Positions 9,399-64,000 of a stretch of 64,000 nucleotides of DNA are shown here, one piece after another. The translations under genes were made by a program, and so were the position numbers. Below the pieces are notes generated by a model. The model made no database searches. It worked only from the letters and a program-made list of their open reading frames with translations, and was not told the origin of the DNA. The stretch lies in NCBI GenBank assembly GCA_025054875.1, contig JANWYS010000003.1, positions 2,862 to 66,861 of the forward strand, in the 5' to 3' direction. The stretch's first letter is position 1, and the number at the start of each line of letters is the position of its first letter. Source of the DNA: Cytophagaceae bacterium (GTDB lineage: Bacteria > Bacteroidota > Bacteroidia > Cytophagales > Cytophagaceae).

Positions 9399-10829
9399 TC
9401 AGTTAGTTTGTAGTTCAAGCATATATTTTGAAAATGCCAACAACTCTTGTTCTGCAAAAGATTTTGTCATTAGCTGTATGCCTATGGGCAAGCCATTTGA
9501 ATCGCAACCGTTAGGTATGGATATTGCTGGCAGTCCACAAAGATTTGCTTGTACAGTGAATAGGTCTGCCAAGTACATTGACAACGGATCACCTTCATGC
9601 TCTCCAATTTTAAAGGCAACCGTTGTAGTGGTAGGAGTAATGAAGAAATCGTATTGACTCAGGATACGGTCTGTTTCTTCCTTAATCAATCTTCTTACTT
9701 TCTGGGCTTTGGTATAGTAGGCATCATAGTACCCCGCACTGAGAACAAATGTGCCCAGCATAATTCTTTTTTTCACCTCCTTACCAAAACCTTGCGAACG
9801 TGTTTTTTTGTACAAACTTACCATATCTGTAGCCCCCTCTGCTCTGTATCCGTAGCGTACACCATCGTATCTCGACAGGTTAGAGCTGGCTTCTGCAGTG
9901 GTGAGGATGTAATAAGTGGGCAGTATGTAATCGAGCAACTTAAATTGCACGGGCTCAACAATATGGCCTTGCTTTTTCAGAAGTTCCAGTGCCTTGAGCG
10001 TGTGTTTTTTAATTTCATCGCTCACACCTTTACTCTCAACGCTTTCGCGCAGATACCCTATTTTATACTTTTTTGATGTTTTGAGCATCTTTGTATACTC
10101 AGGAACTTCTCTTGAAGATACCGTAGAGTCATAATCATCTCTGCCGGCTACCACTTCCAGCAATAACGCTGCATCTTCAATGCTGCGAGTTATGATGCCT
10201 ATACAATCGAAAGAAGAAGCATAGGCGATAAGCCCATACCGCGATATGCGGGAATAAGTGGGTTTTAACCCTATGATTCCACAAAAGGCTGCTGGTTGCC
10301 GCACGGAGCCTCCTGTGTCAGAGCCTAATGAAGCCAAACATAAATCAGCCTGTACAGCCGCTGCCGAACCTCCTGAAGACCCACCCGGCACACGGCTATT
10401 GTCAACATCGTTGAGTACAGGGCCAAATGCCGAATTTTCGTTTGACGAACCCATTGCAAACTCATCACAATTCTGACGGCCTATAATGATAGCATCTTCA
10501 TCTATCAAGCGCTGCACGGCTGTGGCGTTAAATTTCGATTTAAAACCATCTAATATCTTGCTGGAAGCTTGCAGTCTATGGTCTTTGTGGCATAATACAT
10601 CTTTAAGTCCTACCACCATACCGGCCAGGCGGCCTGCCTTGCCGGCTGCTATTTTCTTATCTATTTCTTCAGCTTTTGCTAATGCCTCTTGTTCGTACAC
10701 CTCTAAAAAGGCATTCAGTGATGATTTTTTTTTGATGTTGCTCAGATAATATCGGGTGAGTTCAACGCAAGATGTTTTTCCTGCATCTATATCTTCCCTG
10801 ATTTCTTGTAATGAGTGATAGCGTTTCAA
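9399..10829 (-). CDS. gatA: Asp-tRNA(Asn)/Glu-tRNA(Gln) amidotransferase subunit A
   Basis: Amidase signature GGSSGGSAAAV...GSDTGGSVRQPA. Size of 476 aa and N-terminal pattern are typical of GatA. Confidence 0.9.
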   Translation of the reverse strand: MKRYHSLQEIREDIDAGKTSCVELTRYYLSNIKKKSSLNAFLEVYEQEALAKAEEIDKKIAAGKAGRLAGMVVGLKDVLCHKDHRLQASSKILDGFKSKFNATAVQRLIDEDAIIIGRQNCDEFAMGSSNENSAFGPVLNDVDNSRVPGGSSGGSAAAVQADLCLASLGSDTGGSVRQPAAFCGIIGLKPTYSRISRYGLIAYASSFDCIGIITRSIEDAALLLEVVAGRDDYDSTVSSREVPEYTKMLKTSKKYKIGYLRESVESKGVSDEIKKHTLKALELLKKQGHIVEPVQFKLLDYILPTYYILTTAEASSNLSRYDGVRYGYRAEGATDMVSLYKKTRSQGFGKEVKKRIMLGTFVLSAGYYDAYYTKAQKVRRLIKEETDRILSQYDFFITPTTTTVAFKIGEHEGDPLSMYLADLFTVQANLCGLPAISIPNGCDSNGLPIGIQLMTKSFAEQELLAFSKYMLELQTN

Positions 10830-16443: not shown

Positions 16444-16590
16444 GGCTGTAGGGGAAGGAGTCGAACCTCCAAGGGGCAGTTAGCCACAGGACAAGAATTA
16501 ATTTTTGTGGTCAACCCAATATCCTGCGTTTATCCCGTTATCCCCACCCTCGAGACAGGAGGGCATGGCTGCCAGTTTCATCACCCTACA
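16444..16590 (-). ncRNA. tRNA-Asp(GUC)-like RNA with a 76-nt variable region (unclassified tRNA-like gene)
   Basis: A 7-bp acceptor stem pairs TGTAGGG with CCCTACA. U8 is present, and A14, G18G19 and A21 sit at canonical spacing. The anticodon arm is CCCTC-CTGTCTC-GAGGG and the T arm is GGAGG-TTCGACT-CCTTC. Discriminator G is followed by CC. A 76-nt insert lies between the anticodon and T arms. Confidence 0.6.
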
Positions 16591-16622
16591 ATTAATTCAA
16601 TATTCCTCATGAATACCGGCAA

Positions 16623-16653
16623 CAAAAGTACGAAGCATTTCTGAGTATTCAAA
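16623..16653 (-). promoter_or_regulatory. Bacteroidota-type promoter match (TTTG-N19-TACTTTTG) upstream of the tRNA-like gene
   Basis: On the minus strand, TTTG (16653-16650) is followed by a 19-nt spacer and then TACTTTTG (16630-23). This fits the -33 TTTG / -7 TAnnTTTG consensus and ends about 32 nt before the predicted mature 5' end. Confidence 0.4.
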
Positions 16654-16737: not shown

Positions 16738-17202
16738 ATGGCTGCGGATAATTATCAGATTGACAACACAGATATGCAGATACTTCGCTGTCTGATGAAA
16801 GATGCCACCACGCCTTACACTGATATTGCCAAACAGCTCAATGTATCGGGAGGAACTGTACATGTGCGAATGAAAAAACTAATGGATGCCGGCATCGTCA
16901 AAGGAGCTACTCTAAACATTGATTACACAAAGCTTGGGTATGATATTACGGCATTTATAGGCATATATCTTGAGAAAAGTTCTTTTTACGATCGGGCAGC
17001 TAAAGATTTGGCCAAGATACCCGAAGTAATTAATGTGCATTATACCACAGGCAACTACAGTATGTTTGCGAAAATTATCTGCAAAGACACCAATCACCTA
17101 CGCCAGGTGCTGCACGACAAAATTCAAAAAGTAAGCGGCATAGAACGTACGGAAACACTCATTTCATTGGAAGAAACTATTAATAGAAATATAAAGTTGT
17201 AA
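16738..17202 (+). CDS. Lrp/AsnC-family transcriptional regulator
   Basis: N-terminal HTH (DNTDMQILRCLMKDATTPYTDIAKQLNVSGGTVHVRMKKL) plus a C-terminal RAM/AsnC_trans_reg domain. 154 aa. Confidence 0.9.
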   Translation: MAADNYQIDNTDMQILRCLMKDATTPYTDIAKQLNVSGGTVHVRMKKLMDAGIVKGATLNIDYTKLGYDITAFIGIYLEKSSFYDRAAKDLAKIPEVINVHYTTGNYSMFAKIICKDTNHLRQVLHDKIQKVSGIERTETLISLEETINRNIKL

Positions 17203-63926: not shown

Positions 63927-64000
63927 CGGGATGTGGCGCAGCCTGGTAGCGTGCTTGCATGGGGTGCAAGAGGTCGTGGGTTCAAATCCCGCCATCCCGA
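63927..64000 (+). tRNA. tRNA-Pro (anticodon GGG)
   Basis: Cloverleaf by eye: acceptor CGGGATG/CATCCCG, D arm GCGC-AGCCTGGTA-GCGT, anticodon arm CTTGC-ATGGGGT-GCAAG, T arm GTGGG-TTCAAAT-CCCGC, discriminator A at 64000. No encoded CCA is visible before the window ends. Confidence 0.9.

Follow-up and report, generated by a model that had tools for sequence, protein, structure and literature searches.

A conserved family of tRNA-Asp-like RNAs with enlarged variable arms in Bacteroidota and in phages

The DNA analysed here, referred to throughout as the window, is a stretch of 64,000 nucleotides from a Cytophagaceae bacterium (contig JANWYS010000003.1), and its minus strand carries at 16445-16590 an intact gene of a widespread, conserved RNA family. 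The encoded RNA folds as a tRNA with an aspartate anticodon and holds a variable (V) region of 76 nt. An earlier note, made from the letters alone, had described a tRNA-Asp-like gene at this site and had left three options: a tRNA whose V arm holds a novel insertion or intron, a regulatory RNA that mimics a tRNA, or a decayed copy of tRNA-Asp. The comparative data support a novel V-arm class or tRNA mimic, and they refute decay or insertion damage, as the whole structure, including the V arm, is kept with many compensatory changes in more than 200 homologues. Three features were absent from the earlier note: a class II tRNA body, linkage to a gene for an AsnC-type regulator, and a place in phage tRNA arrays. 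Taken as a whole, the RNA is probably a specialised mimic of tRNA-Asp that is processed as a tRNA, probably aminoacylated and used in a non-standard way, a reading drawn from sequence comparison.

Results

Sequence and cloverleaf of the element

Read 5' to 3' on the minus strand, the element runs UGUAGGG-UG-AUG-AAACUGGCAGC-CAU-G-CCCUC-CUGUCUC-GAGGG-U, then through the V region, and ends GGAGG-UUCGACU-CCUUC-CCCUACA-GC (Table 1). The landmarks listed in the earlier note all held on re-reading of the sequence: the acceptor stem of seven perfect pairs, U8, a D arm of 3 bp whose 11-nt loop holds A14, G18G19 and A21, the anticodon GUC at 16554-16556 with U33, U at position 37 (16553) and C38 (16552), the canonical T arm, the discriminator G followed by CC, and the 76-nt V region closed by GGGG/CCCC. 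C75 lies at 16444, and CCA is only partly encoded. The window copy thus has the core of a tRNA cloverleaf (7-bp acceptor, 5-bp T stem, U8, A14, G18G19, A21, T54-Ψ55-C56, A58) together with the signature of the family: Y-U-G-U-C-Y37-C38, U1:A72, G2:C71, G73-C74 and a GAUAAA/CUAA V arm. The cloverleaf was reproduced by a single-sequence thermodynamic fold with a minimum free energy of -52.1 kcal/mol and an unexceptional z of -1.76; because that fold is unremarkable by itself, the support for the structure is the comparative data.

Homologues, covariation and a covariance model

More than 200 distinct homologues were recovered from bacteria and phages. An IMG/VR search with a pattern from the 5' half of the element gave 15 phage contigs. 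Another 3'-half pattern, confined to the V arm and the T loop, matched 106 phage stretches, and a metagenome scan gave at least 120 loci. Independent evidence on conservation of the 5' half comes from the set found with the 3'-half-only pattern. In that set a tRNA-like 5' half, although not asked for, was present in all stretches with sufficient upstream sequence except L131 and L177, which are apparently disrupted copies. On metagenome contigs, AsnC orthologues of 76-79% identity have a homologous, divergent RNA about 150 nt upstream, and the V region measures 41 nt in some of the AsnC-linked metagenome homologues and 77 nt in others. Among named bacteria, two tandem copies are found in Sporocytophaga myxococcoides, five in Cytophagaceae bacterium ABcell3 and a single copy in Fulvivirga ligni, and marine Flavobacteriales of the MED-G21 type, which are abundant, have a short form next to AsnC. 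A blastn search of INPHARED with three members matched only one unannotated 636-kb uncultured phage, in a tRNA array; at blastn sensitivity no copy was seen in the cultured phages of that collection.

An alignment of 78 sequences (A2) was used to examine the structure. The RNAalifold consensus had 31 pairs, and compensatory changes were present in 26. When an explicit structure of 37 pairs was scored, covering the acceptor, D, anticodon and T stems and three V-arm helices (PV1, PV2 and PV3), 95.4% of cells were standard pairs, against 44-56% in controls in which the partners were slid by 1-3 columns. Double-sided changes occurred in 30 of the 37 pairs, V-arm pairs included, and all three helices of the V region showed compensatory changes. 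The covariation score was 0.50, compared with 0.07-0.14 in the controls, and none of 500 shuffles reached the observed values.

A covariance model built from the A2 alignment (R1) gave 75-157 bits for the family and at most 46 bits for true tRNAs, the best of which were tRNA-Asp(GTC) and class II tRNA-Leu and tRNA-Ser. The window copy, whose own score is partly circular as its sequence is in the R1 seed, was the second-best member at 155.9 bits (E ~1e-40). Independent copies in cultured or complete genomes scored 114-147 bits.

Conserved positions

Six acceptor-stem pairs covary, and the seventh, G2:C71, is invariant. U1:A72, G2:C71, U3:A70, G73 and C74 are conserved at 97-100%, and the inner acceptor pairs covary freely. 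U1, G2 and U3 were each conserved at 97-98% in the set where the search pattern did not fix them; of 78 sequences, 76 have U1:A72, and among 114 sequences U1 was counted 112 times, as was A72. An eighth acceptor pair, between position -1 and G73, was considered and rejected, position -1 being variable. The D stem covaries in the set ascertained by the 3' half (AU/GC/UA/CG and UA/CG), and the D arm of the family follows the consensus UG-NNG-AAAYUGGCAGAC-CNN. The tertiary core is invariant at U8, A14, A15 with U48, G18G19, A21, G53, T54, T55, C56, A58 and C61, and so is G57 of the T loop.

The anticodon loop reads Y32-U33-G34-U35-C36-Y37-C38. With the 3'-half-only pattern, the anticodon stem covaried, G34, U35, C36 and C38 were invariant, and U33 was replaced by C in two sequences. 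Position 37 in this set was U in at least 90% of sequences, C in the rest (for example L083 and L087) and never a purine; counted over 114 sequences it was U in 110 and C in 4. Canonical tRNA-Asp genes on the same contigs share this loop except for A37.

The variable arm

In the family consensus of the V arm, PV1 (4 bp) is succeeded by a bulge of 4 nt, PV2 (3 bp), the A-rich internal loop and PV3, and the apex is variable. Its length ranges from about 20 nt in L314 to about 110 nt, with a base-paired stem in every member and the conserved A-rich loop in most; both adenines of the CUAA strand are kept in 113 of 114 sequences. Long forms of about 142-150 nt, the window RNA among them, carry the motif GGGUUGACCAC at the apex, whereas in the short forms (109-113 nt) a GNRA-type tetraloop on a stem of 3 bp closes the arm. 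L314 is a natural member of 92 nt with a V arm of class II length only. Several bacterial loci hold a tandem pair of one short and one long paralogue.

The comparative structure revises the internal anatomy proposed earlier for this region. The CCACA/TGTGG hairpin drawn there is not supported; in the family TGTGG is part of the 3' strand of the long V helix (16485-16493), which pairs with CGCAGGATA (16520-16528), and CCAC belongs to the conserved apical motif. What had been taken for a tandem GGGATAA(A)C duplication is really two short helices with a bulge and the conserved A-rich loop, GAUAAA opposite CUAA. An intron is unlikely, as a stem is always kept in the V arm and no ribozyme or intron family was matched. 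The GAUAAA/CUAA loop may resemble a tertiary-contact motif of the UAA/GAN type.

Comparison with tRNA models and known RNA classes

ARAGORN did not call the element, its only call in the window being a tRNA-Pro at the end. Rfam 15 gave no match to the element at gathering thresholds and none of meaning at E up to 10, and in 15 phage loci Rfam matched the element in none. The earlier view that the element fits no known family (tmRNA, tRNA-Sec, SRP RNA or 6S RNA) was right by the same Rfam 15 and ARAGORN searches. When the V region was deleted or shortened to class II length in silico, ARAGORN called tRNA-Asp(gtc), as it did for L314 untrimmed. Because trimming restores the call, V-arm length is the sole cause of the finder's failure.

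The 3-bp D stem with its 11-nt loop, which the earlier note had described correctly, is no defect; it is a normal class II D arm of the Leu type, near-identical to those of class II tRNA-Leu genes on the same contigs (for example L130). The body is therefore that of a class II tRNA and not of a degenerate class I tRNA. A 3-bp D stem, an enlarged D loop and a paired V arm agree with class II architecture, whereas the anticodon is not one for Leu, Ser, Tyr or Sec and the V arm exceeds about 21 nt. As a canonical elongator tRNA (RF00005), the RNA lacks purine 37, falls outside the range of about 72-95 nt and escapes detection. The 7/5 branch, in which both stems covary, is at variance with the 8/4 or 9/3 branch and Sec-like D arm of allo-tRNAs. 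ARAGORN and Rfam detect real tmRNAs in related phage loci but make no such call on the element. A relation to YrlA or Y RNAs, suggested by a UUGACC motif, was rejected on architecture, the ends of the RNA forming an acceptor stem, and Rfam gave no match; Ro60 was not among the annotated neighbours, whose most frequent families are AsnC and Suf, with packaging genes in phages. Nor does the RNA look like a pseudogene, with 95% of cells paired, 30 of 37 pairs compensatory and the motifs of the insert conserved. No description of the family was found in the literature searched, and it is apparently uncatalogued.

Promoter and RNA ends

The promoter match TTTG-N19-TACTTTTG at 16623-16653 reported in the earlier note proved correct: TACTTTTG starts 40 nt upstream of the RNA, with TTTG before it at the right spacing. 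Of 55 homologous loci linked to AsnC, 42 have an exact TAnnTTTG no more than 75 nt upstream of the RNA, and the promoter motif is invariant in alignment A1. A scan for sigma-70 promoters gave no match, as expected for Bacteroidota. The short leader that this promoter would produce is presumed to be removed by RNase P.

At the 3' end, canonical tRNA genes of the related, mostly phage, loci were compared. C74 is encoded in 330 of these 349 genes (95%) and full CCA is rare, an unusual and uniform rule in the ARAGORN calls of loci L083-L327. Invariance of C74 was accordingly rejected as a special signal of the family. The RNA follows the local 3' rule of tRNA genes and therefore presumably has CCA added.

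Genomic context in bacteria

The start of the AsnC-like gene lies 147 nt from the 5' end of the RNA in the window. The best NCBIfam match of its product is the AsnC equivalog NF008384 (E. coli AsnC), at 179 bits against a cutoff of 227, with Lrp at 45 bits. In a curated set of bacterial loci, AsnC was divergent and upstream in 54 of 56, at a median gap of 145 nt. Among the metagenome matches listed, an AsnC homologue of 42-74% identity was upstream and divergent in 48 of 120; the others comprised 19 tRNA arrays, 15 loci with short upstream sequence and 38 other contexts, mostly phage packaging-module loci with small groups near rluD-like or thrA-like genes. The thrA and rluD neighbours of these groups appear to be incidental, as the RNA has a promoter and a terminator of its own there. 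The linkage is also not absolute, since the AsnC orthologue of L089/L090 (75% identity) has no RNA upstream.

The only recurrent neighbours in the 56 curated loci were AsnC and, beyond it, sufB/sufC; gatCAB, aspS and asn genes did not recur there, and it is sufBCD and not Asn genes that come after asnC. The other flank in the window holds moxR. None of 80 moxR loci from other Cytophagales species held a homologue, R1 gave no match on a re-searched subset of these loci, and the conserved partner of the element is thus the asnC side, not the moxR side. The presence of a canonical-length tRNA at the syntenic site in relatives, which the earlier note had named as favouring insertion damage, was not found. 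Bacterial locus L238 has two canonical tRNA-Asp genes, of the A37 type, 1.4 kb from the RNA.

The 3' side of the RNA varies. In L083, L085 and L086 (1-2740), which represent one lineage, about 1 kb free of called genes separates the 3' side of the RNA from a restriction-modification gene of the MmeI/Eco57I type, and sister lineages have other genes on this side. The 3' flank thus behaves as a variable island, as the flanks of tRNA genes often do.

Genomic context in phages

The viral contigs are genuinely phage, with terminase, portal, exonuclease and PhoH genes. In many of them the RNA lies within a same-strand tRNA array, in which gaps of 4-10 nt to its neighbours are frequent; at least 10 such arrays also encode a canonical tRNA-Asp(GTC) with A37, and some encode a tmRNA. 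In another phage lineage, the RNA is placed between the gene for a protein of about 170-200 amino acids (aa) without a family match and the gene for the large terminase. A search for partner proteins in phages returned as conserved neighbours the ~170-200-aa protein and one of ~94-125 aa, both without a family match, together with exonuclease and TerL, none of which hints at a function of the RNA. In 13 phage loci, L201 and 12 others, a gene for a small protein with a Tad2-like (Thoeris anti-defence 2) domain (PF11195, E = 1.5e-23; L201 1124-1375) recurs a few hundred nucleotides downstream of the RNA.

Table 1. Features of the RNA gene and its surroundings in the window (position 1 is the first nucleotide of the window)
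Feature	Position	Strand	Remarks
RNA gene, tRNA-Asp-like	16445-16590	-	146 nt; full cloverleaf read from sequence
Acceptor stem, 5' strand UGUAGGG	16584-16590	-	7 bp with 16447-16453
U8, G9 and class II-type D arm	16565-16583	-	stem AUG/CAU; 11-nt loop AAACUGGCAGC
Position 26 and anticodon arm CCCUC-CUGUCUC-GAGGG	16547-16564	-	read from sequence
Variable region	16471-16546	-	76 nt, between anticodon and T arms
PV1 GGGG/CCCC	16542-16545 with 16473-16476	-	compensatory changes in family
PV2 CGG/CUG	16535-16537 with 16477-16479	-	compensatory changes in family
Internal loop GAUAAA opposite GCUAA	16529-16534, 16480-16484	-	motif conserved (alignments A2 and A3)
PV3 CGCAGGAUA/UGUCCUGUG	16520-16528 with 16485-16493	-	compensatory changes in family
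Apical motif GGGUUGACCAC	16507-16517	-	conserved (A2 and A3); variable or absent in short paralogues
T arm GGAGG-UUCGACU-CCUUC	16454-16470	-	four of five stem pairs covary in family
Acceptor 3' strand CCCUACA, G73 and C74	16445-16453	-	C71, G73 and C74 invariant in family
5' leader, at most ~30 nt (putative)	16591-16622	-	placed from promoter position
Bacteroidetes-type promoter	16623-16653	-	-33 TTTG (16650-16653), 19-nt spacer, -7 TACTTTTG (16623-16630)
AsnC-like regulator gene	16738-17202	+	Pfam AsnC_trans_reg and HTH_AsnC; divergent from RNA
GatA gene	9399-10829	-	TIGR00132, 579 bits, above cutoff; 5.6 kb from RNA
tRNA-Pro(GGG)	63927-64000	+	at end of window; ARAGORN call, Rfam 60.2 bits

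Discussion

A probable specialised tRNA-Asp mimic

Under the reading that we consider probable, the RNA would be transcribed from its own Bacteroidetes-type promoter or, in phages, as part of a polycistronic tRNA array. The tRNA-processing machinery would excise it, with RNase P cutting at U1 and the 3' end being trimmed to G73-C74, and the CCA-adding enzyme would complete the end. An L-shaped fold would leave the V arm projecting as a docking module, and proteins would read both ends of the molecule, with its Asp-type anticodon loop at one and U1:A72, G2:C71 and G73 of the acceptor at the other. The identity set of E. coli AspRS is G34, U35, C36, C38, G73 and G2:C71; because all of these are invariant in the family, aspartylation is the most economical guess, so that AspRS would be the most likely protein to bind and charging with Asp would be probable. 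The earlier note had argued likewise from the anticodon, C38 and G73. That argument was reasonable and is strengthened by the family-wide invariance, and charging has the standing of a prediction. The pyrimidine at position 37, the giant V arm with its conserved motifs and the co-resident canonical tRNA-Asp suggest a specialised substrate, scaffold or regulator rather than an ordinary decoder. Expression in bacteria would probably be controlled by the adjacent AsnC-type amino-acid-sensing regulator.

Several points weigh against this reading. As a class II synthetase, AspRS comes to its tRNA from the variable-loop side, and a V arm of this size might get in its way. In the metagenome set, the search pattern itself accounts in part for the near-invariant 5' half, and a pyrimidine at position 37 weakens decoding without alone forbidding it. 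No convincing terminator was found at the window copy, whereas in relatives strong terminators follow the RNA gene after 10-20 nt. Linkage to AsnC is not universal, some bacterial copies being near rluD- or thrA-like genes, and it could reflect no more than a shared intergenic region. A long V arm combined with G73 is, moreover, the signature of SerRS, as has been argued for allo-tRNAs (PMC5389517).

Alternative readings

A genuine translating tRNA for GAY codons, with the enlarged V arm as a decoration or a regulatory handle, appears unlikely; it could be one more tRNA-Asp isoacceptor or, like the allo-tRNAs and the V-arm tRNAs of nematodes, a missense tRNA charged with Ser. This reading would account for the full cloverleaf with all positions of the tertiary core, for U33 in nearly every member and for the 7/5 branch, and it agrees with the presence of the RNA in phage tRNA arrays under the same C74 rule and with the ARAGORN call of tRNA-Asp for the 92-nt L314. 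Long-V allo-tRNAs frequently carry GUC (PMC5389517), and engineered tRNAs with aptamer-tagged V arms reportedly are still active in translation (PMC7590224). However, a purine at position 37 is found in 0 of more than 200 members as against A37 in every canonical tRNA-Asp on the same contigs, and a decoder would be redundant beside those co-resident genes. The family also keeps to one anticodon loop, whereas allo-tRNA anticodons cover 35 codons, and a decoding role does not explain the V-arm motifs or the link to AsnC.

Distinctly less probable is a non-decoding scaffold for tRNA-dependent synthesis of Asn, which AspRS charges, GatCAB amidates, AsnC regulates and phages carry. AspRS would load Asp by way of the GUC/C38/G73 identity set, GatCAB would accept the charged RNA through U1:A72 and amidate Asp to Asn, U37 and the V arm would keep the product off the ribosome, the Asn-sensing AsnC next door would switch the RNA on when Asn is scarce, and the phage copies would amount to an RNA "auxiliary metabolic gene". 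In favour of this, U1:A72 is near-universal in the family, nearby canonical tRNA-Asp genes mostly having G1, so that an Asp anticodon and U1:A72 are combined in one RNA; the best family match of the regulator is AsnC. The window organism encodes GatA (TIGR00132, 579 bits) and therefore has tRNA-dependent amidation machinery. In E. coli it is asnA that lies divergent from asnC, and the RNA occupies the place of asnA relative to asnC. U1-A72 promotes amidation of Asp-tRNA(Asn) by bacterial GatCAB, and the G1-C72 pair of tRNA-Asp blocks it (PMC1635274), and some Bacteroidetes have AsnRS, GlnRS and GatCAB but neither AsnA nor AsnB and so no asparagine synthetase (PMC4206432). Against it, the argument is purely inferential, and the D loop, enlarged as in class II tRNAs, may be an antideterminant for GatCAB, like U20A in tRNA-Asp (PMC1635274). 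Genes for gatCAB, aspS or Asn synthesis are not consistently adjacent, asnC is followed by sufBCD, and the gain for phages is not evident. Were it true, the RNA would stand in for asparagine synthetase in Bacteroidota without AsnA or AsnB, phages would have captured an RNA-only metabolic gene, and the RNA would be a tRNA-derived cofactor with a product not meant for the ribosome.

The single deviation at position 37 in an otherwise invariant anticodon loop could also be that of a decoy or competitor, soaking up a tRNA-directed enzyme such as a nuclease or toxin that attacks GUN/QUN anticodons, TGT or AspRS; this we regard as very unlikely. The pool of real tRNA-Asp would thereby be protected or modulated, to the benefit of phages, and the RNA would then have been domesticated, or first lent, by a host. 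Phages frequently carry the RNA together with canonical tRNA-Asp, and the up to five tandem copies in bacterial loci suit a role that depends on dosage. No defence or toxin gene is consistently nearby, and a decoy leaves unexplained the invariant acceptor end (U1:A72, G2:C71, U3:A70, G73), the V motifs and the AsnC linkage.

That the gene is a dead relic, either a tRNA-Asp gene broken by an insertion or a tRNA fragment at an integration site, has next to no likelihood and is excluded by the covariation of every helix including the "insertion", by the conserved promoter and by the spread of the family over two Bacteroidota orders and many phages, the window copy having the second-best score of the family (155.9 bits), even though tRNA finders and Rfam make no call and a few low-GC partial copies with only acceptor and T arm (L240 and L214) occur near real ones.

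Relation to known RNAs

The family shares with class II tRNAs (Leu, Ser, Tyr and Sec) the 3-bp D stem with an 11-nt Leu-type loop, the V arm between positions 44 and 48, the 7/5 branch, A15:U48, G18G19, the TΨC loop and an encoded C74. It differs from them in the V region, which measures 76 nt in the window copy and reaches about 110 nt in other members, compared with about 13-21 nt; in the conserved V internal loop of nearly all members and the apical motif of the long forms; and in a class I-type (Asp) anticodon with pyrimidine 37, G73 and U1:A72. Long-armed members tested were also not called by the Rfam tRNA model, nor by ARAGORN where it was run.

Non-canonical V-arm tRNAs, that is allo-tRNAs and the V-arm tRNAs of nematodes and other eukaryotes, are the closest known kind; the nev-tRNAs of nematodes belong here. 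Allo-tRNAs resemble the family in joining a long V arm and G73 to the anticodon of an amino acid whose tRNA normally has a short V region. They occur in bacteria and in phage tRNA clusters, GUC is among their predominant anticodons, and they have been proposed to be missense suppressors and/or regulatory RNAs (Mukai et al., PMC5389517). In contrast to their 8/4 or 9/3 branch, their Sec-like D arm with long stem and tetraloop and their anticodons for 35 codons (PMC5389517), the present family has a 7/5 branch, a Leu-type D arm, the one loop GUC-U37-C38, a V arm several-fold longer and synteny with AsnC.

The stable RNAs rnaC (139 nt) and rnaD (119 nt) of phage T4 are likewise annotated as "small, stable RNA" and placed next to a tRNA in a phage tRNA cluster; the 3' part of rnaC resembles a T arm, and the two sizes recall the long and short paralogues of the family, but neither has an Asp-like anticodon arm. 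In T4 (L327; NC_000866 70908-71171) they stand in tandem beside tRNA-Arg. Homology was rejected, as R1 gave 12.8 bits on a part of rnaC, under all eight T4 tRNAs. YrlA is a further tRNA mimic of bacteria and phages that tRNA enzymes modify and process (PMC4201824), but its 5' and 3' ends form a Ro60-binding stem in place of the anticodon stem, its "acceptor" is a closed stem-loop and Ro60/Rsr is adjacent, whereas the present RNA has a true acceptor stem formed from its ends and an anticodon arm. tmRNA, which occurs in some of the same phage arrays, is similar in its tRNA-like domain of acceptor and T arm with a large insertion, and differs in the absence of an anticodon arm, G3:U70/A73 identity for Ala, pseudoknots, a tag ORF and a length of about 350 nt.

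A candidate csRNA from IMG/VR, DNAVirus_1850, with 27 sites, one of which overlaps an ARAGORN call of tRNA-Asp, is listed by Fremin et al. 2023 (PMC10690425). It may be the same family and would then be the only prior sighting. A single overlap is what would be expected if only a short-V member is visible to ARAGORN. Anatomy, host copies, a link to AsnC and a function were not assigned to DNAVirus_1850 in that study (PMC10690425).

Significance

An RNA family present in two Bacteroidota orders and in hundreds of uncultured phages, one of them of 636 kb, has thus escaped tRNA finders and Rfam, and is therefore missed systematically by annotation pipelines. It unites three features that are normally separate: signals of a functional, chargeable tRNA (acceptor end, identity nucleotides, C74 and a place in tRNA operons), features that should bar it from ordinary decoding (pyrimidine 37 and the oversized V arm) and a tight genetic link to an amino-acid-sensing regulator. 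Its V arm reaches up to five times the normal maximum. The family offers a tractable entry to the roles of phage "stable RNAs" in tRNA clusters and of non-canonical V-arm tRNAs, and it bears on the supply of Asn in Bacteroidota without asparagine synthetases. Copies in the cultured S. myxococcoides and F. ligni make experiments feasible, and V-arm insertions that are tolerated in nature are of interest for the engineering of tagged or orthogonal tRNAs.

Additional observations

Look-ups by exact protein matched only two Logan contigs (L081 and L082; SRR15826902), which come from the same organism and are 99.9% identical to the window. Both stop inside the RNA gene, their ends overlapping by 20 nt at 16561-16580. 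The break may be a branch of the assembly graph, caused by a second copy or strain variation, or mere low coverage, and it says nothing about function.

Weak R1 matches of 25-38 bits and low GC (0.29-0.34) were seen in L240 (986-1093), L214 (2465-2572), L245 (6803-6894) and L309 (7511-7613), at distances from a few hundred nucleotides to about 1 kb from genuine copies. The sequence in L240 retains only the acceptor strands and the T arm. Such matches may have been left behind by integration at the RNA gene, or they may represent a minimal derivative of it. A 107-nt tRNA-like sequence in a phage tRNA array (L273, 323-429), with a class II D arm, a T arm and a 7-bp acceptor, scored 43.6 bits under R1 without an ARAGORN call and may be another non-canonical or intron-containing tRNA.

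In three loci with the 118-119-nt form (L211, L244 and L285), the RNA lies a few hundred nucleotides upstream of a thrA-like gene for aspartokinase/homoserine dehydrogenase on the same strand, with its own promoter motif and a strong terminator; the aspartate-family neighbour is possibly a coincidence. In L244, about six tandem repeats of ~38 nt (AAGCCTTGGCGAAGGCGGGTGCATCCAATTTTAAGG) lie ~60-330 nt downstream of the element, between its terminator and the next gene.

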